Shown here: positions 1 to 7,541 of the stretch, one piece after another
Layout: every line of letters starts with the position of its first letter
Numbering within the stretch: the stretch's first letter is position 1
From: a virus
Lineage: Duplodnaviria; Heunggongvirae; Uroviricota; Caudoviricetes
Reading direction: 5' to 3' (one strand)
DNA: 7,541 nucleotides
IMG/VR virus record: IMGVR_UViG_2645727593_000017
Coordinates: 1-7,541 of that record
Program-made: the position numbers and the translations under genes
The notes under the pieces: model-generated
Database searches by the model: none
What the model was told of the DNA's origin: nothing
The model's input: only the letters and a program-made list of their open reading frames with translations

Positions 1-1119
1 TCAAATAACCAACTTAACCCATTCCTGACCTCGAGTATCGTTATAGCGATCGGTGGTTGCCTGGACTTTATGTCCTAGTAATGTTTTTGTATCGATACCC
101 TGTGCACGGTACAGCCGTTCTGATAGAGAGCGTTGTTCATGAAATGTTGGCGGAGTTTTTCCTGCTGGTGGAATTATCCCAGCCAGATCCCGTGCTTTGG
201 CAAAGTAGCCGCTCAGGTTGTCTTTACTCATCGGCTTCGGTTGTTTCTGGTGCCGACTATGGATTAGATATGGACTTAATATTCTGTCTCGGCACCCATC
301 AATAACTTCTTTTAACGTTATCCCAATGGCATCACAGCGTAGTGTAAGCGGTAATGCCAGACGCATTCCGGTTTTTCCCTGGGTGATATGCAAGTGTTCG
401 TTCCACACATCTGAAAAACGCATGTGGCAAATGTCATCACGGCGCTGACCAGTAACAATCGCAAGAAGCATTGCGTTACGGATAAAGTGTTTTTCAGGCG
501 TTGTATTGTAAATTTTTTGCCAGTCTTCCATGGTGAGCCTGGCTCTGGTTACTTTAGGGATCGGTTTACGGGTAGCCTCCGGAGGATTCCATCCAGGAGG
601 AACTTCCCCTGCATGCTGTGCTTCTTTATAAATATCAACCCATAATCCACGATTTACTCTCGCTGTGCTGACCATGTCTTTATCCAGCCACTCATCCAGT
701 ATTAATGCAAAGTCTCTTACTTCCAGTTCTTTCAATGGGTGGTTTCCCAGACGGGAAACCAGGTATGCAGCCATTCGAGTTTTTTCTTTGTGAGTTGTAG
801 CTGCAATATCTCCATTTTTCAGTCGCGCGTCCTGTATTTTCAGATATCGATCAACCCATGCCTTTAATCTGATGCCCCGACGTTTTGTTGCTGACGGACT
901 TTCATCAATTTTGCGCATGAAATATTCAGCTTCTGCTGCAGCTATTCGCTGATTGGCTGTGGAAGCGATTTTTTCTGCTTTGCCTTTGTCTGTTCCGAGA
1001 CCGTGAAATTTTCCAGTCACAGGGTTTTTATACTGGTAGTAAACCCTGCCAGTTCTGCGATCAAACTTTTCGTAAAGACCGGTTACGTCAGTGCTGTTTT
1101 TTCGTGGCCTCGGTGACAT
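1..1119 (-). CDS. int: Phage tyrosine integrase (lambda Int family), complete, 372 aa
   Basis: Complete ORF with ATG at 1119-1117 and TGA at 3-1. AAGGAG Shine-Dalgarno lies 10 nt upstream of the start. The N-terminal arm-binding region resembles lambda Int (YYQYKNPVTGKFHGLGTDK). The C-terminus carries tyrosine-recombinase catalytic motifs (HEQRSLSERLY ... LLGHK ... TTDRYNDTRG, with the catalytic Tyr). The start overlaps the 3' end of xis as in lambda. Confidence 0.93.
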   Translation of the reverse strand: MSPRPRKNSTDVTGLYEKFDRRTGRVYYQYKNPVTGKFHGLGTDKGKAEKIASTANQRIAAAEAEYFMRKIDESPSATKRRGIRLKAWVDRYLKIQDARLKNGDIAATTHKEKTRMAAYLVSRLGNHPLKELEVRDFALILDEWLDKDMVSTARVNRGLWVDIYKEAQHAGEVPPGWNPPEATRKPIPKVTRARLTMEDWQKIYNTTPEKHFIRNAMLLAIVTGQRRDDICHMRFSDVWNEHLHITQGKTGMRLALPLTLRCDAIGITLKEVIDGCRDRILSPYLIHSRHQKQPKPMSKDNLSGYFAKARDLAGIIPPAGKTPPTFHEQRSLSERLYRAQGIDTKTLLGHKVQATTDRYNDTRGQEWVKLVI

Positions 1120-1339
1120 GAGTTAAAATCTCCTTCAGTGCATCATCATCGCCAGTATGAATTTCCGGCGCAATTCCCGTTTCACCAGGTCCAACAAATA
1201 CTGCCCGGCGATCTATCAGCCAACGCCCACGAATTTTTTGTGGTCTTGGAACGATGTATCCTAGTTTTCCGTATTTCACCAGGGTAGTGTTTGTTATTGG
1301 GAGACTGAACCGTTTTGGTTTCCACTCGTCGAGCGTCAT
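1088..1339 (-). CDS. xis: Excisionase (Xis/AlpA-like winged-helix DNA-binding protein), about 83 aa
   Basis: The product MTLDEWKPKRFSLPITNTTLVKYGKLGYIVPRPQKIRGRWLIDRRAVFV resembles the lambda Xis N-terminus (LTLQEW ... winged helix). The 3' end overlaps the int start by 32 nt, the usual xis-int arrangement. The start is ambiguous: in-frame ATGs at 1339, 1348 and 1387. Confidence 0.75.
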   Translation of the reverse strand: MTLDEWKPKRFSLPITNTTLVKYGKLGYIVPRPQKIRGRWLIDRRAVFVGPGETGIAPEIHTGDDDALKEILTHVTEATKKQH

Positions 1340-2951
1340 CAAGTGCATTATGGCGCTCACCTTCGAATGGGATAGCCGTTCTGGCATCGAAGTCTATGGC
1401 TTTCCCCAGCTCAACGATTGTGCGTACATCGCGATCGTTGTAGTAACGCCACGGGCAGGGGATCCCCTGCCGTTCGTATGAACGGCGCAAAATCGTGTTG
1501 TCGAAGTTGGCTCCATTTCCCCAGACCTGAACAAAAAATTCACCGGAGTTTTCGTCGATAAATTCCCGCAATTGCAGTAGTGCATCATCTAACGGGATTT
1601 CATCGGTCATAATGGCAGACTGCGCTTCACGTGATTGCTTCAGCCACCATTTAATGGTGTCACGATCAATGACTCCGCCAGCAGTTTCCAGATCGATAGT
1701 CTTACTAAATTCCGGTCCCATATCTCCGGTTTGCGGATCGAAAAATATTGCACCTATTGAGATAATCGGGGCATCAGGATTTTTTCCCATGGTTTCAAGG
1801 TCGATCATTAGATGGTCACACGTCCTGCTGGTGGATGTGATAACGCGATGACCGTTCACCGTAATTAAGGGATCTGCCGTCTCGCCAGTTTCACTATCGC
1901 TGGCGTGATCCTGAGCGCTGCCAGCATTCTCCTTGTGTGGATGTTCAGCGCCTTCCATTTTCTCCGAATCGTCTTCCTGAACTTCAACCTGGTTCTTGTC
2001 ATCGAATGTTTCCTGGTATGTTGCGTCGCCCATCACCGCACCACAATCAGGGCAGTTGCCACCGCCGGTCTGACCGCAGGCGGTGCAGACTTTTTCCACT
2101 TCCTGTTGCGCCACTGGTTCAGGCTGTTTCGTTTCTGGCTCGTTTTGTAACGCATTTGGGCTGTTTTGTTCCGCTTTCTGGTCGTTCTGTTCCGTTTCTT
2201 GCTGGTTCTGGTTCACAGAATCGCGGGTTTCAATCCCCTTCACCCATTTCGGATCATTCGGGTCGCTAATCCCTGCAACAAATTCACCACGTGATGCGGC
2301 GAGCAACTGATTGGCGTCAGGCTGGCTGATATTGGCTGCCTGCATAATTTTGTTTACTTCGTCAGCGGTAACTTTTACCGGTTCTGGCTGTGCGGTCGTG
2401 TCAGATGCACCAGTATTTTGTTGTGAACCTGAGTATGTACTGTTTTTGCGGGCGAAATATTCTTCTTTCGTGATTTCAGTAGCCCCGGCAGCCAGCGCCT
2501 TATCCAGACCAGAAAGTTTGTTTGCGCGACCGTATTTTTCGCCATCCTTGTCGGTGAAGAGGAAGTAGAACGGCCCCTCACGCTCTACAGATGGTTCGAC
2601 TTCCACTTTGCATTCGGTTTTTTCGTTGTCCGGAATTGCCGTTTCCACTGCATCAGTTTCTGGTACTGGCGACGAGAGAGTATCAGTTGCGCTCTGATTT
2701 GTTCCTTCATCTTCAAACACGCCCTTTGTAGTCAGGTATTCAGTAATGTATTTGTTCAGTGCCACAGGATCTTTGTGAATGTCGATCGGACGTTCACGGA
2801 CAAGGCCAAAAATAGTCTGGCGGTCGTAGCGAAGGGCATCAGGCTGTTTGCGCATCGATGCCGAGATACGCTTCCAGTCTTCGCGGTCGTTGTCGATAAC
2901 TTCATTTTTTGCCCAGCGATGGATGCTGCCGTCAATGTTTCCGGCATCCAC
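1182..2951 (-). CDS. Large acidic protein with C4 zinc ribbon and C-terminal DEDDh (DnaQ-like) 3'-5' exonuclease domain; probably the downstream part of an ~850-codon frame interrupted by TGA at 2961-2963
   Basis: 589-codon ORF. Exo I motif MIDLETMG at nt 1788-1808, Exo II WGNGANFDNTIL around nt 1500-1517, Exo III HNALDDA (H-x-A-x-x-D-A) at nt 1332-1352. CTACGQTGGGNCPDC (C-x2-C-x7-C-x2-C) zinc ribbon at nt 2043-2087. Q/E-rich acidic linker upstream of the ribbon. The ORF begins with GTG directly after an in-frame TGA, with no Shine-Dalgarno and no ATG until codon 33. Confidence 0.7.
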   Translation of the reverse strand: MDAGNIDGSIHRWAKNEVIDNDREDWKRISASMRKQPDALRYDRQTIFGLVRERPIDIHKDPVALNKYITEYLTTKGVFEDEGTNQSATDTLSSPVPETDAVETAIPDNEKTECKVEVEPSVEREGPFYFLFTDKDGEKYGRANKLSGLDKALAAGATEITKEEYFARKNSTYSGSQQNTGASDTTAQPEPVKVTADEVNKIMQAANISQPDANQLLAASRGEFVAGISDPNDPKWVKGIETRDSVNQNQQETEQNDQKAEQNSPNALQNEPETKQPEPVAQQEVEKVCTACGQTGGGNCPDCGAVMGDATYQETFDDKNQVEVQEDDSEKMEGAEHPHKENAGSAQDHASDSETGETADPLITVNGHRVITSTSRTCDHLMIDLETMGKNPDAPIISIGAIFFDPQTGDMGPEFSKTIDLETAGGVIDRDTIKWWLKQSREAQSAIMTDEIPLDDALLQLREFIDENSGEFFVQVWGNGANFDNTILRRSYERQGIPCPWRYYNDRDVRTIVELGKAIDFDARTAIPFEGERHNALDDARRVETKTVQSPNNKHYPGEIRKTRIHRSKTTKNSWALADRSPGSICWTW

Positions 2952-2960
2952 ATCACCAGG

Positions 2961-3737
2961 TCAGAGAGCGTAGGCCAGTTCGTCATCCAGTGTTTTCCAT
3001 GTCTGCTTATATTCGCGACGAATGACTGCAGTGACAGGGGGGATTTTTTCTGCTGAGTTTTCAGTGTGCTGTCGGTGGACTCTGGCGCGGGCGAGATCAA
3101 CAACAGACGTGTATTTTCCGGTTTCCTTGCGTTCACCTTCGCGACGTTTTTTCCAGATGCGCATCTCTGCCTGAATTTCGGGCCATTTGGCACCAGGCTT
3201 ACATTTATGCTTAACCCACCCGATGGCATGCAGCTTAAGCTCCGGATACATGGCGTTAACTTCTGGCATTTTCATCAACGCTTCAACGATATGTCCGTCG
3301 AATGTTGCCATGTCTTCCTGCAACAATTCCTGCGCGCTAATCACCATATCAACGGTGATGTTTTCACATGTGTCGAACTTAACCATGACAGCGTTCTGTA
3401 CTTCAAGGGACAGTTTGTCAAAATTGACGTTCATCGGTTCGGATTCTGGTTCGACCGGAATAAAGGAAGCGGATTCCTCATCCCAGCGGTTTTCCTGCAT
3501 ATATTCGGTATCCCAGGAGTCGATAGCAGGGCGGGGCATGCCGGGTTTATCCTCGCAGATAAGAAATTTATAAGCGCAGTCCTGAGCAGCCGGATATTGC
3601 TCCAGGAATTGCCAGGTAAATTTGGCACGGGCGCGGCGTTCGTCACCGGCTTCAATGGCAGTGGCTACAGCAACTGCACCTTCTTCCTTTATTGCCTGTT
3701 CGTCCGGAATGGCGGCGCAAATAAAGACTTTACTCAT
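2961..3737 (-). CDS. Hypothetical acidic protein, 258 aa; likely the N-terminal part of the interrupted large nuclease gene
   Basis: ATG at 3737 with GAGG 10 nt upstream. Same strand and same reading frame as ORF 1182-2951, separated from it only by TGA-CCT-GGT-GAT. The composition looks protein-like, whereas the antisense ORF 3066-3755 is F/G/L-rich, typical of a mirror frame. No recognisable motifs. Confidence 0.6.
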   Translation of the reverse strand: MSKVFICAAIPDEQAIKEEGAVAVATAIEAGDERRARAKFTWQFLEQYPAAQDCAYKFLICEDKPGMPRPAIDSWDTEYMQENRWDEESASFIPVEPESEPMNVNFDKLSLEVQNAVMVKFDTCENITVDMVISAQELLQEDMATFDGHIVEALMKMPEVNAMYPELKLHAIGWVKHKCKPGAKWPEIQAEMRIWKKRREGERKETGKYTSVVDLARARVHRQHTENSAEKIPPVTAVIRREYKQTWKTLDDELAYAL

Positions 3738-3860
3738 TTTGTTTTAACCTCATGACAGATTTAAGGATGAACAAATCCCTGCCATTGCTGGCATATAAGA
3801 ATCAAATCTGATGTATTCATTAAGCTGAATGTCGTATTGTGGCAGTTATTTTATTACTGC

Positions 3861-4082
3861 TCACCATGACTCTGCTTTTACAGGTAAACCATCACGACCA
3901 AGGAAGACTTTAATCATGGTTTCCTTAATACAGTGTTGTGTGGAAAAATCACGAATATAGAGCCGTTGTTTTTTAATGTTGTTTACCGAAGCAATATATG
4001 TTCTTCCTTTATGAATAACATAATCACCGGGAGTCACGCACTGACGAGGAATCTCATCAGTTCCGAAGTGATGAGCAATCAT
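3861..4082 (-). CDS. kilR: KilR-like small killing / cell-division inhibitor protein, 73 aa
   Basis: The [76 protein letters not shown] matches in length and sequence my recollection of Rac KilR. The start was chosen at the ATG at 4082, which has GGAG 6 nt upstream; the track ORF begins 4 codons earlier. Position left of the immunity region fits Rac gene order. Confidence 0.6.
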
Positions 4083-4655
4083 AATTATCTCCATTTTTAC
4101 AAATGAACTTTGTTGATGCGGTGCCTGGTGCCTCCAGGTGACGTTAACCAGTTAACAATTAACGCCGGATACAGAGAGCCCACCCATAACACTGTTTTTG
4201 GTTTTAACTGTTCCGCGTGCGCTCAGCCGCATTCACCGCATCACAAAACTCACTTTAAAAAGGGCGGCAGACCAGTCACGGAGTAAAACTGATACCGCCA
4301 AACGTCACCAGAAAATTGATAACAGAGGGCGTTGCAGCGGGGTTGTCACTTAAGCGTATGGTCAACCTGACAACCCGGTGTCCTCAACGGGGGAAGGAAT
4401 AACCCCGCCATACTTACCGCCGCGCCATTTCGCGGATTGCCACAACCGGAAGCGCACGGTCGACGAAAATTTAACGACAGGCTATCTATGAACCAGCTAC
4501 CTCGCCGTGCGCTTTCGCGTTATGGTCTGACTTTTCAGGGAAATATCCTTTCAGTAAACTGTCAGTGCCGGATGCTCACCCGTGTCCGGCGCAAGCACTC
4601 CACCTCACCCGTGGAGAACTCCTTAATTACCAACCTTAGCTTCGTTGGTTAGCTA

Positions 4656-4874
4656 TTAACGCGGGTATGTAATCATTCTGGCAATGGTTAATGCCGCTGC
4701 TTTTTCCAGATTGGTGATATCCTGCTCCAGAGAGGACAGATTTTCAGCCTGCTTAGCCCTGACTTCATTAGCCCATTTCAGATCCTGCGCTGCATTAATT
4801 TTCTGGTGCATCCACTCATAAAGTTCATCATTGGTATAGTCTGGCGCGATGATGACGGGTTCTCGTTTCTGCAT
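4656..4874 (-). CDS. Hypothetical small protein, 72 aa, early-left operon
   Basis: ATG at 4874 preceded by GAGGA (spacer about 6 nt). Lies directly downstream of the 42-codon ORF in a PL-driven cluster. No recognisable motif. Confidence 0.5.
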   Translation of the reverse strand: MQKREPVIIAPDYTNDELYEWMHQKINAAQDLKWANEVRAKQAENLSSLEQDITNLEKAAALTIARMITYPR

Positions 4875-4903
4875 ACTGATTCCTCGCGGTGCTGTTTCGC
4901 TTA

Positions 4904-5032
4904 TCAGCCATTAGATTTTGCCGAACTGGAAAGCACCTGTTTAAATTCGTTGAAGCTGTGAGCTTCTTCGCCTTCGGCAAGGCCTTCGAAGTATTCTTCG
5001 TAAGCCTTTTCCATGATTGTGTCGAAATCCAT
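4904..5032 (-). CDS. Hypothetical small acidic protein, 42 aa (below the ORF-track size cutoff)
   Basis: Minus-strand ORF MDFDTIMEKAYEEYFEGLAEGEEAHSFNEFKQVLSSSAKSNG. Its ATG at 5032-5030 sits 1 nt after the TGA of the upstream ORF (TGAtATG), suggesting translational coupling. GGTGGG lies upstream. Confidence 0.35.
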   Translation of the reverse strand: MDFDTIMEKAYEEYFEGLAEGEEAHSFNEFKQVLSSSAKSNG

Positions 5033-5033
5033 A

Positions 5034-5270
5034 TCACCCACCTGAATTTCTTTCCAGCCAGCGACGCGCTCCAGATTCGGTTTTAAACGTTTTGCTTTTG
5101 GTATACGTCATTGCGGTGAACGTACCGTACTGGTTGGGGAACACGCCACATACCAGAGATTCGCTGTTGCCAAGATCGATAGTATCCATGCTGACCTCAT
5201 TTCCCCTTAACGCCGGGGTAGCGGAACAAAAACCTGCTGCATAGTTATTAAAGTTGAACCCTGCCGTCAT
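5034..5270 (-). CDS. Hypothetical small protein, first gene downstream of PL (78 aa from ATG 5270, or 51 aa from ATG 5189)
   Basis: ORF ... MDTIDLGNSESLVCGVFPNQYGTFTAMTYTKSKTFKTESGARRWLERNSGG. Both candidate starts have GAGG upstream. It sits about 95 nt downstream of the predicted PL transcription start. Possibly equivalent to the small ydaF/ydaG-type Rac genes, but I cannot confirm this. Confidence 0.5.
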   Translation of the reverse strand: MTAGFNFNNYAAGFCSATPALRGNEVSMDTIDLGNSESLVCGVFPNQYGTFTAMTYTKSKTFKTESGARRWLERNSGG

Positions 5271-5370
5271 GTTCTTACGCCTCGGGCTGGCTACTTAACC
5301 CGTGACCACTGCCTGGTAACTCGAGGTATTGCCCTGTATTGTGTGGGACGGGATGGGTTGGTATGGGAAA

Positions 5371-5399
5371 ACTATAGGAAATGCCTAATTACTTGTCAA
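5371..5399 (-). promoter_or_regulatory. PL-like early leftward promoter: -35 TTGACA (5399-5394), 17-bp spacer, -10 TATAGT (5376-5371)
   Basis: Read on the minus strand: TTGACA-agtaattaggcatttcc-TATAGT. The -35 is consensus, the -10 is a 5/6 match and the spacing is optimal. Operator half-sites GCCTAAT overlap the spacer and the -35. Confidence 0.55.
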
Positions 5400-5435
5400 T
5401 AGGCTATGCCTAATAATTTGGGCGCAACCTAATAG
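5380..5435. promoter_or_regulatory. OL-like operator cluster (ATAGGC-TAT-GCCTAAT plus flanking CCTAAT half-sites)
   Basis: Positions 5393-5415 are the exact reverse complement of 6037-6059. The palindromic half-site GCCTAAT/ATTAGGC occurs at 5383-5389, 5409-5415 and, as CCTAAT, at 5429-5434. Confidence 0.5.
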
Positions 5436-5472
5436 GTGATGGTTTGTGGAAGAGGTAGTAGGAGTTAACTAA

Positions 5473-5492
5473 CGGGAACTAGGAATTTCCCG
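5473..5492 (-). terminator. Candidate stem-loop downstream of the repressor gene (CGGGAA-N8-TTCCCG), weak intrinsic terminator
   Basis: 6-bp GC-rich stem with 8-nt loop, 16 nt past the repressor stop codon. On the minus strand it is followed by TTAGTT, only a weak U-tract. Confidence 0.3.
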
Positions 5493-5507
5493 TCGGACCA
5501 TATAAGT

Positions 5508-5984
5508 TTAAGTTCCTGTCTTGGTGATGTTCTGGCTTTTCCGTTTTGATGCTTGATTTTTCAGATAGTTAGCTACCTTCATTTCCATTGCGGCAATGTA
5601 GGCGCGAACGTCATGATCAACCCAACTAGGCTCCGTAGCATTTCCAGATAAGATGAAAGCCACAATTGCTCTTTTTTCATCAGAGGCGGCTTGATAAAGG
5701 CTGTTTATGTCTAAAAGTTCACTTTTTGTATCTGAAGTGGATGGGGTTGGTATGGGGTATTCGTTAAGCCCCCAATGCTCTGGACCAACCACATCAGAAA
5801 AGAAACGCCATAGTTCTGGAAGTTTGTCTTTACTTATCGAACCTTTCTTAATCCAGTCATGGATTGATGGTGGTTGGACTTTGAAATGACGTGCGATTTC
5901 CGCCTTTGATTTGACGGCTCCTGATGCAATTTTTTTGTTAATGGCCTGCTCTATCGCTCGGCCTAAATCTTTACCACTAAGCAT
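5508..5984 (-). CDS. racR: Prophage immunity repressor, HTH_XRE type, 158 aa, no LexA-like peptidase domain (RacR-like)
   Basis: ATG at 5984 with AGGAGA upstream. HTH segment KSKAEIARHFKVQPPSIHDWIKKG. Divergent from a cro-like gene and flanked by operator/promoter inverted repeats. Length and neighbourhood (KilR-like to the left, YdaS/YdaT-like to the right) match Rac. The symbol is assigned by architecture, not by sequence recall. Confidence 0.65.
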   Translation of the reverse strand: MLSGKDLGRAIEQAINKKIASGAVKSKAEIARHFKVQPPSIHDWIKKGSISKDKLPELWRFFSDVVGPEHWGLNEYPIPTPSTSDTKSELLDINSLYQAASDEKRAIVAFILSGNATEPSWVDHDVRAYIAAMEMKVANYLKNQASKRKSQNITKTGT

Positions 5985-6036
5985 TGCTTAATAGTCTCCT
6001 ATGCGCATCGCGTTAGGCAATCCCTACTCTCGATGT

Positions 6037-6079
6037 ATTAGGCATAGCCTATTGACAATTTCATTAGGCTAAGCCTAAT
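6037..6079. promoter_or_regulatory. OR-like operators: ATTAGGC-ATA-GCCTATT (6038-6054) and perfect palindrome ATTAGGC-TAA-GCCTAAT (6063-6079)
   Basis: Two 17-bp palindromes with 7-bp arms and 3-bp centre, 25 bp apart centre to centre, overlapping PR. The left one is part of the 23-bp inverted repeat shared with OL. Confidence 0.55.
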
Positions 6080-6081
6080 AT
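6052..6081 (+). promoter_or_regulatory. PR-like early rightward promoter: -35 TTGACA (6052-6057), -10 TAATAT (6076-6081, 18-bp spacer) or CTAATA (17-bp spacer)
   Basis: Consensus -35 located 52 bp upstream of the cro-like ATG. The -10 region is embedded in the perfect operator palindrome. Confidence 0.5.
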
Positions 6082-6108
6082 TGTTGCGTGTTTTTTGGAG
6101 TTCATTCG

Positions 6109-6432
6109 ATGAAAAAAGATAACTATTCATTCAAACGAGCTTGTGCTGTTGTCGGTGGGCAATCAGCAATGGCTAGGCTTTTAGGTGTATCTCCTCCAAG
6201 CGTAAATCAATGGATCAAAGGTGTACGTCAGTTACCTGCTGAGAGATGTCCTGCGATTGAACGAGCAACAAAAGGTGGTGTCCTGTGTGAAGAACTTCGT
6301 CCTGATGTTGATTGGACATACTTACGACGCTCGTCATGTTATTCGCAGAATATGTCGATGAAGCAACCAAATGACGAAAACGATCATACCCGAAGCATCA
6401 AGAGGCAAATGATTCATGAAAATCAAACATGA
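6109..6432 (+). CDS. ydaS: Cro/YdaS-like HTH regulator, 107 aa
   Basis: ATG at 6109 with GGAG 8 nt upstream; the track ORF begins at an upstream GTG at 6088. HTH segment QSAMARLLGVSPPSVNQWIKGVRQLP. Divergent from the repressor across the operator region. Its 3' end overlaps the next gene by 17 nt. Confidence 0.7.
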   Translation: MKKDNYSFKRACAVVGGQSAMARLLGVSPPSVNQWIKGVRQLPAERCPAIERATKGGVLCEELRPDVDWTYLRRSSCYSQNMSMKQPNDENDHTRSIKRQMIHENQT

Positions 6433-6841
6433 GCACATCCGCATGGCGATGAATGCCTGGGCATACCCTGATGGTGAGAAAGTTCCTGCAGCTGAAATAG
6501 CCCGGACTTATTTCGAACTGGGGATGACGTTCCCTGAACTGTACGACGACAGCCATCCGGAAGCCCTGGCCCGTAATACCCAGAAAATTTTCCGTTGGCT
6601 GGATAAAGACACCCCTGATGCTGTTGAAAAAATGCAGGCTCTGTTACCGGCGATCGAAAAGGCGATGCCGCCTTTGCTGGTGGCCCGTATGCGCAGCCAC
6701 AGTTCTGAATATTACCGTGAGATCGTCGAACGGAGGGATCGGCTGGTGAAGGATGTCGATGATTTTGTTGCGTCAGCGGTTGTTTTGTATGACCAGATGA
6801 ATCGCGGCGGCCCGGCAGGGAATGCTGTGGTGATGCACTAA
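6416..6841 (+). CDS. ydaT: YdaT-like protein (CII-like or toxic regulator family), 141 aa
   Basis: ATG at 6416 with AGAGG upstream, overlapping the ydaS-like stop. Length and position match the Rac racR-ydaS-ydaT arrangement. The antisense ORF 6423-6881 is P/S/R-rich and judged spurious. Confidence 0.65.
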   Translation: MKIKHEHIRMAMNAWAYPDGEKVPAAEIARTYFELGMTFPELYDDSHPEALARNTQKIFRWLDKDTPDAVEKMQALLPAIEKAMPPLLVARMRSHSSEYYREIVERRDRLVKDVDDFVASAVVLYDQMNRGGPAGNAVVMH

Positions 6842-6863
6842 AAGCACGGTGTTCGGGGGTTTT

Positions 6864-7541
6864 ATGAGCAGCAAGCTTCATGGTCTTGTCTGGGAAGGGT
6901 GCGCCTTCACCGGCATGATCTTATCCAGGGTGGCGGTTATGGCCCGTCTTGCAGACTACAGCAATGACGAGGGCGTGTCATGGCCTGCCATTGAAACTAT
7001 CCGGCGTCAGATCGGTGCAAGAAGTGAATCCACAGTGAAATCGGCTATTGCAGAACTGGCGAAAGAGGGCTGGCTGACGAAGGAAGAGCGTAAGGTCGGT
7101 GGGCGTAATGTAAGCAATATCTATCGGCTTAATGTGGAAAAACTCGAAGCAGCTGCGGCGGCGGCGCGTGAGTCATATAAACCGAAAAGAAAAATTAGCC
7201 CGGCAAAAAATGACCCGTTAACAGTTGACCCGTCAAATATTGACCCCTCAACGGTTGACCCGTCAAATTTTGATGGATCAACTGTTGATAAAAAACTGCC
7301 GATTAGGGGGGCGATGATTGACCCCGATCCGTCAGTATTAAAACCTGATCCGTCAGATAAAAGATCTTCTTGTCCGGACGCTTCGCAACCGGACCCGCAG
7401 ACGGCTGAACAGGATTTTTTAACCCGACACCCTGACGCGGTTGTGTTCAGTGCGAAAAAACGCCAGTGGGGAAGTCAGGAAGATTTGGTGTGCGCACAGT
7501 GGATCTGGGGACGAATCGTGAGTCTTTACGAGCAGGCGGCC
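6864..7541 (+). CDS. Replication initiator, lambda O-like, with N-terminal winged-helix and internal iterons; 3'-partial (runs off the window)
   Basis: ATG at 6864 with GGGGG upstream; open to the window end (226 codons). The N-terminus (ARLADYSNDEGVSWPAIETIRRQIGARSESTVKSAIAELAKEGWL) looks like a helix-turn-helix replication protein. Tandem DNA iterons inside the coding sequence encode DPLTVDPSNIDPSTVDPSNFDGSTVD. Confidence 0.7.
   Translation, partial: MSSKLHGLVWEGCAFTGMILSRVAVMARLADYSNDEGVSWPAIETIRRQIGARSESTVKSAIAELAKEGWLTKEERKVGGRNVSNIYRLNVEKLEAAAAAARESYKPKRKISPAKNDPLTVDPSNIDPSTVDPSNFDGSTVDKKLPIRGAMIDPDPSVLKPDPSDKRSSCPDASQPDPQTAEQDFLTRHPDAVVFSAKKRQWGSQEDLVCAQWIWGRIVSLYEQAA
7209..7300. repeat. 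Iteron array (candidate phage replication origin) with adjacent A-rich tract
   Basis: Four or five copies of a 15-16-bp unit with an internal palindrome TTGAC-CC-GTCAA: tgacccgttaacag, ttgacccgtcaaatat, ttgacccctcaacgg, ttgacccgtcaaattt, tgatggatcaactg. These are followed by ttgataaaaaactg. Confidence 0.55.

Follow-up and report, generated by a model that had tools for sequence, protein, structure and literature searches.

A stretch of about 550 bp without a credible ORF lies inside an otherwise tightly packed leftward prophage operon, which raises the question of what this DNA encodes: a decayed gene, a structured non-coding RNA or a regulatory region, the three options that the earlier note had offered. 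The window analysed here (the whole stretch of 7,541 nt, positions 1–7,541 of IMG/VR record IMGVR_UViG_2645727593_000017) corresponds to the early-left arm of a lambdoid prophage and is read here on the minus strand. By rising position it holds the integrase gene (1–1119), then those for an excisionase and a RecE-like exonuclease, then kil, the gap, ydfC, ydfB and ydfA (DUF1391); beyond ydfA lies a cI-like repressor gene (5508–5984), with divergent cro-like and ydaT-like genes further on. Upstream of the DUF1391/ydfA gene, as in the K-12 layout and at the place expected for PL/dicBp, is a PL/dicBp-like sigma-70 promoter (TTGACA-17-TATAGT, 11 of 12 consensus matches; 5371..5399, minus strand). 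It is the only promoter-like site that a consensus scan of 3800–5600 returned, and it drives the leftward operon ydfA-ydfB-ydfC-dicF-kil; the scan gave no internal promoter for DicF or kil, and the K-12 literature likewise describes none. We conclude, with a probability of roughly 0.9, that the gap forms the middle part of an early-left prophage operon of the dicBF type, and that this part is untranslated and encodes RNA.

The limits of the gap are set by two identified genes. The last protein gene before it is ydfC (4656..4874, minus strand), which is ~97% identical to K-12 ydfC, matches phrog_1744 and is called 'protein YdfC' by PGAP in the near-identical strain ST866. On the other side lies kil (3861..4082, minus strand), encoding a Rac KilR-type FtsZ inhibitor of 73 aa and holding the place of dicB-ydfD in Qin. 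Its ORF matches NCBIfam NF008465, 'FtsZ inhibitor protein', at 139.7 bits against a cut-off of 92, as well as phrog_294 Kil (E = 2.6e-34), and PGAP also names it 'kil'. Because the NF008465 alignment covers residues 5–77 of the 77-aa ORF and a Shine–Dalgarno sequence, GGAG, lies at 4092–4089, we place the kil start at ATG 4082, so that the non-coding stretch spans 4083–4655; it is transcribed on the minus strand. The gap is thus real and non-coding, as had been proposed. It is also a conserved unit, with 561 nt found in 4722 of 5426 complete E. coli genomes.

Other parts of the window bear marks of decay and exchange. The RecE-like 3′–5′ exonuclease gene (1182–3737, minus strand) is a pseudogene here: compared with E. 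coli ST866, where the gene is intact and encodes 823 aa, its reading frame is interrupted by a stop codon at 2961–2963 (W259*), and a deletion of ~153 bp (junction near 1330–1341) takes out the 3′ end of the gene together with the spacer before xis. As this gene has both a nonsense codon and a deletion, the prophage is decaying. The repressor/cro region at 5365–6410 has no megablast match to ST866, with flanks that are 98.5–99.8% identical, which suggests that the immunity module was swapped.

The Rfam search that the earlier note had proposed found the DicF sRNA immediately. RF00039 matches 4313–4262 on the minus strand at 74.2 bits, against a gathering score of 48 (E = 1.9e-15, model positions 1–52 of 52), and the 53-nt sRNA occupies 4262..4314 on that strand. 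DicF is a classical sRNA locus, described in 1989–1990. The copy in the window differs from K-12 dicF (b1574) at one of 53 nt, in the internal loop of the terminator hairpin. Position 4270 is G here and C in all 48 other sequences of the precursor alignment (CUGGUCUG against CUGCUCUG), a change that should alter the fold and the pairing with ftsZ only slightly: the duplex predicted with the K-12 ftsZ ribosome-binding site (−50..+21) is retained, at −35.0 kcal/mol compared to −34.1 kcal/mol for K-12 DicF (RNAduplex). The intrinsic terminator consists of a stem at 4299–4263 (GGCGGUAUCAGUU / GACUGGU..GCCGCC) and a U-run at 4261–4257 (UUUUU). A simple terminator scanner missed it, which we attribute to the internal loop and the 9-nt apical loop of the stem. 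The context is that of a known DicF, with the sRNA in the ydfC 3′UTR of a ydfABC operon, ydfA (DUF1391), ydfB, ydfC and the PL-like promoter upstream and a cI-like repressor gene adjacent, and the whole interval aligns at ~97% with two sequences that carry a DicF annotation, K-12 ydfC..dicB (dicF, b1574) and phage Tritos. DicF and its processing context are already known and well studied, and the locus is in this respect an ordinary one. Of the three options, the structured non-coding RNA stands, in the form of DicF, which had gone unrecognised, and of a structured leader; the regulatory region stands too, as a regulatory and processing region, and only the decayed gene falls away.

In K-12 a polycistronic RNA, ydfABC-dicF, is the source of DicF, whose 3′ end is given by the intrinsic terminator and whose 5′ end, in the 53-nt form, is set by RNase E; a 72-nt form receives its 3′ end from RNase III acting on read-through transcripts (PMC10448788, PMC9438474, PMC5069750), and a 190-nt species has an RNase III-dependent 5′ end (PMC10448788). 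Folding of the minus-strand RNA predicts long helices where these published ends fall, and the cleavage sites that we assign to this sequence would follow from the published K-12 work or from these folds. A 190-nt species that ends at the terminator would begin at ~4446–4451, in the 3′ arm of a long hairpin of ~22 bp (4440..4525, minus strand; 4525–4500 with 4465–4440 in the minimum-energy fold) that has a hypervariable tip. Among 49 homologues the stem of this hairpin is kept and the apical loop varies. Placed from the published length rather than from a mapped nucleotide, it would be the RNase III site at which the 190-nt pre-DicF acquires its 5′ end. A 72-nt species (again the published length) that starts at the DicF 5′ end would stop at ~4243, in the 5′ arm of the outer helix (P1) of the leader described below.

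Upstream of DicF lie ~340 nt of ydfC 3′UTR and DicF precursor, and fold strength compared with shuffles differs among the three segments of the gap. The leader (4255–4101) has z = −5.98, with none of 200 shuffles as good, and the DicF precursor (4535–4257) has z = −2.53, with 1 of 200 as good; the ydfC-proximal part (4655–4536), at z = −1.02 and 29 of 200, is no more structured than chance. This last module (4536..4655, minus strand) has conserved hairpins at 4598–4616 and 4567–4590, which the consensus fold includes; their invariant stems give no covariation either way, and the two hairpins may be meaningless. The earlier note had listed four GC-rich hairpins in the gap; CGGGG-N10-CCCCG (4388–4407), GCCGGA-N12-TCCGGC (4567–4590) and CTCCAC-N7-GTGGAG (4598–4616) lie where it put them, and CCGCG-N6-CGCGG belongs at 4420–4435 rather than 4418–4433. 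The pre-DicF module (4315..4446, minus strand) contains hairpins 4435–4420, 4409–4386 and 4376–4340 in the consensus fold, and its 3′ end probably holds the RNase E site for the DicF 5′ end, by analogy with K-12; the sequence around 4314 is identical to K-12. A pre-DicF block, 4323–4446, is conserved on its own in cdtI and Stx2c phages, and a shorter one, 4338–4435, is found in P7 and P1, where the P1 annotation reads 'dicF-like region'. The sequence of hairpin 4409–4386 is replaced in some homologues by an unrelated G+C-rich one. The precursor stems are too nearly invariant among the 49 homologues for covariation to show.

Weak Rfam matches were also returned inside kil and at 7220–7286 (CRISPR-DR41, snoU49, mir-250); we treated these as chance.

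A decayed protein gene in the interval, be it the remains of a Rac-like sieB or a pseudogene of dicB, is barely credible. The sieB proposal came from the Rac layout, and K-12 Rac does have sieB nearby, between kilR and ydaF; it lies further upstream, however, and on the opposite strand. Searches by tblastn with K-12 SieB, the 62-aa DicB and YdfD gave zero matches in 4083–4655, and blastn of Rac 5501–6320 against the window gave no significant match there, so that sieB, dicB and ydfD remnants were rejected. The dicB pseudogene is suggested by PGAP, which annotates 'cell division inhibition protein DicB, incomplete' in near-identical genomes at the equivalent of 4109–4192 (minus strand), and by the K-12 Qin alignment, in which a GTG-initiated frame can be read stop-free from the leader into dicB. 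This fragment, however, is upstream of the experimentally defined dicB start, and the homology to Qin ends ~15 nt before the dicB ATG. It also overlaps the leader RNA helices P3–P5 and P1, which show compensatory changes; the variable domain of the leader changes length by non-multiples of three, and a 1-nt insertion at 4114 disrupts the frame in the window. The PGAP call, and the hypothetical proteins that several phage records place at 4109–4192, look like a recurrent mis-annotation.

Real small proteins are very unlikely as well. The five short ORFs of the gap have zero matches to Pfam or NCBIfam, but two of them on the minus strand match PHROG families with unknown function (4457–4362, phrog_8854, E = 6e-19; 4192–4097, phrog_24763, E = 1.2e-16), and several phage records annotate a 'hypothetical protein' in the gap. 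The PHROG families derive from automatic gene calls on nearly identical DNA, and both ORFs fall in predicted RNA stems. ORF 4457–4362 is the only recurrent short ORF, yet it is broken by frame-breaking indels: among the 49 homologues a 1-nt indel gives two C-termini, and several copies have premature stops. ORF 4192–4097 sits inside the leader, where the spacing of two conserved blocks varies by non-multiples of 3. Small-protein coding was rejected on these grounds, with the PHROG matches explained by the automatic gene calls.

The untranslated, RNA-encoding reading extends to the DNA between the DicF terminator and kil, which is a structured leader of 155 nt (4101..4255, minus strand), a four-way junction related to STnc100. 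Its outer helix P1 pairs 4255–4234 with 4123–4101 over 22 bp, with one bulged A. Inside it are the invariant hairpin P2 (4230–4226 with 4220–4215), P3 (4214–4212 with 4169–4167), which closes a variable domain, the 'TTAAC' hairpin P4 (4166–4158 with 4148–4140) and the CCUGG/CCAGG hairpin P5 (4138–4134 with 4128–4124), all on the minus strand. The triple TTAAC repeat GTTAACCAGTTAACAATTAAC had been located correctly at 4143–4163; it is a single hairpin of the leader, P4, whose arms and loop are the three repeats, and GTTAAC is a palindrome. To assess covariation we aligned 65 distinct copies of the leader; a scan of IMG/VR with its conserved 5′ motif had recovered 120 loci. In this alignment 96.1% of cells are paired and the consensus is the four-way junction. 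Thirteen pairs change on both sides, compared to 6.1 ± 1.5 in shuffles (0 of 500 reached this) and at most 8 in slid controls, and the covariation score, 0.134, compares with 0.029 or less in slid controls.

Searching the leader with Rfam gave a match to STnc100 (RF02076) of 37.6 bits, below the gathering score of 47 (E = 1.6e-5, model positions 26–154 of 206). A match that likewise stays below the gathering score recurs at this position in K-12 Qin, P7, D6, a Klebsiella phage and others, the E-values for the leader ranging overall from 1.6e-5 to 2.4e-6. In the reverse direction, we built a covariance model (R1) from leader-type sequences alone, without canonical STnc100, and recovered canonical STnc100 copies with the motif GGTGAATCCCCCTGTGCGG; R1 matches these at 37.6–62 bits, with rough E-values of 1e-8 to 1e-15. 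Most of them align to R1 positions 15–141 only, without the 13-bp outer extension of P1. The leader shares with STnc100/PasD the four-way-junction architecture and the junction motifs GGUGAAU on the 5′ side and (U)CACC-GGAGGCACC-GGCACC on the 3′ side, but the P2 and P4 sequences differ and the 13-bp outer-helix extension belongs to the leader. The settings differ too: canonical STnc100 copies belong to the late region, where they neighbour Q, stx or esterase genes, and some have promoter-like and terminator-like flanks, whereas the leader is embedded in an operon. We found no promoter of its own, the operon promoter being the only promoter-like site in 3800–5600, and no terminator of its own is evident in the sequence, the kil Shine–Dalgarno sequence and start codon coming directly after it. 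The leader is an operon-embedded structural relative of STnc100 and not a member by the Rfam criterion. A 2026 preprint ties STnc100 to the PasD sRNAs of lambdoid and Stx prophages, and through that link the leader joins, structurally, an STnc100/PasD superfamily. In the literature searched we found no mention of a relation between the leader and STnc100, and a search for an sRNA from the dicF–dicB spacer gave nothing relevant. Only one element of this locus is new, namely the identification of the dicB/kil leader as a relative of STnc100 that has covariation support and a long flanking helix, a putative RNase III substrate.

Two further arrangements of such elements were seen. Locus L135 (IMGVR_UViG_2861053794_000003) carries four tandem STnc100-like elements within ~1.1 kb (2311–3362), each scoring 47–62 bits with R1. 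A third subfamily (L010, L012, L016, L029 and similar IMG/VR loci; for example L010:3505–3650) combines the leader 5′ block and P5 with a different middle and has no Rfam match at gathering score; since an apparent intrinsic terminator of its own follows (GGTACCAG...CTGGTACC TTTTT), it looks like a free-standing sRNA gene.

Comparison with known systems places the leader in several operons. The K-12 Qin dicBF operon is ~97% identical at the nucleotide level from ydfC to ~15 nt before the dicB start codon, with the same gene order, DicF one base apart, and the same terminator, precursor hairpins and leader. It differs from the window in having dicB-ydfD instead of a Rac-type kil and in its immunity region, and the 3′ arm of the leader outer helix in the window is Rac-type, with one bulged A. 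K-12 Rac has the same 155-nt leader directly between the sRNA KilS (b4833) and kilR (NC_000913.3, positions 5249–5503 of our locus L130; 147 bits with R1), and the kil gene, the Shine–Dalgarno region and the P1 3′ arm are identical in type to those of the window; P3 and P4 of Rac are compensatory variants. KilS occupies the position that DicF has here; it lies just upstream of the leader, and the terminator at its end resembles that of DicF. It is 98 nt long and its 5′ part is different from that of DicF (PMC8175672). In P7 and D6 (ban operon) the leader element, with an outer helix of only ~8 bp, lies before tciA/terB, annotated as a possible division inhibitor, and next to tRNA genes; DicF is not detectable in P7 or D6. 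P1 and P7 have the pre-DicF-module homologue (window 4338–4435) separate from the leader, with tRNA genes between the two modules. The positions in the P1 family are 2501–2616 and 3928–4025 in the phage P7 locus (L008) and 2001–2121 in the phage D6 locus (L007).

The genes that follow the leader are diverse. Among the recovered loci they are dicB (57), kil (17), tciA/terB (6), an isrK–C4 immunity cassette (7) and others. Among the 5426 complete E. coli genomes, 195 have the DicF–leader–kil junction, and most others have DicF–leader–dicB. Homology breakpoints recur at 4635, 4613, 4593, 4543/4535, 4434 and 4301, and megablast homology to dicB-type loci stops at 4102. The recombination junction between Qin-type and Rac-type sequence is contained in 4115..4139 (minus strand). 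Because P3 and P4 are Qin-type and the inserted (bulged) A at 4114 and everything downstream are Rac-type, the crossover that placed kil behind DicF falls in 4115–4139. In some phages DicF, the leader, isrK and the C4 antisense RNA stand in a row (L015, 4747–5234; a P1/P22-type immI cassette), making four RNA elements.

This distribution could mean that the leader (4255–4101) has no RNA function and is kept as a homologous linker at which lambdoid phages swap modules such as dicB, kil, tciA and others. Various genes do follow one element, with the swap point at or within the leader 3′ end, and the crossover of the window falls inside it. A linker acting at the DNA level, however, would not predict compensatory changes, and the 13 pairs that change on both sides and the 96% of paired cells are far above controls. 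The z-score of −6 also speaks against it, as does the shared architecture of canonical STnc100 copies, some of which are flanked by promoter-like and terminator-like sequences, and STnc100 RNAs have been detected in EHEC (PMC5331693). We consider a leader devoid of RNA function unlikely, although a linker role is compatible with an RNA function. The leader core may act in cis on kil or dicB expression, may be released as a second sRNA, or may serve mainly as a recombination linker. As a tentative proposal, the leader could be an operon-embedded sRNA of the STnc100/PasD superfamily that is excised by RNase III at its 22-bp outer helix, or a fold that gates the FtsZ inhibitor that follows (dicB, kil or tciA).

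Taken together with the K-12 work, the untranslated, RNA-encoding reading suggests the following course of expression. Transcription would start at the PL-like promoter (5399–5371), run leftward through ydfA, ydfB and ydfC into the long 3′UTR and terminate at the DicF intrinsic terminator (4299–4257). By homology with K-12 Qin (97% identity), RNase III would cleave hairpin 4525–4440 to give the 190-nt pre-DicF, and RNase E, again by homology with Qin, would cut just 5′ of 4314 to release the 53-nt, Hfq-binding DicF, which would repress ftsZ by base pairing, as it would xylR, pykA and manX. Transcripts that read through the terminator would continue through the 155-nt four-way-junction leader (4255–4101) into kil. 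RNase III would cut the 22-bp outer helix of this leader, giving the alternative 72-nt DicF 3′ end, and we infer that the same cleavage would split a short-leadered kil mRNA from the upstream RNA. Because Kil is a protein inhibitor of FtsZ, the cassette would hit cell division twice, through an RNA and through a protein. In this prophage kil has taken the place of dicB through recombination within the shared leader.

For the annotation of such prophages, the locus is a caution: where a packed operon has a long gap without ORFs, the gap can turn out to be a classical sRNA locus, and automatic annotation can label the leader a 'DicB pseudogene' or hypothetical proteins. For the biology of the family, DicB and Kil, two unrelated protein inhibitors of division, are interchangeable cargo behind one sRNA-plus-leader cassette, with the swap made inside the leader. 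If the leader does prove to be an sRNA of the STnc100/PasD superfamily that RNase III excises, a second stable regulatory RNA would come from operons of the dicBF and kil types. Since the leader lies between two mapped RNA ends, generated by RNase III or a terminator, in the best-studied E. coli strain, its function is directly testable in the Qin and Rac prophages of K-12.
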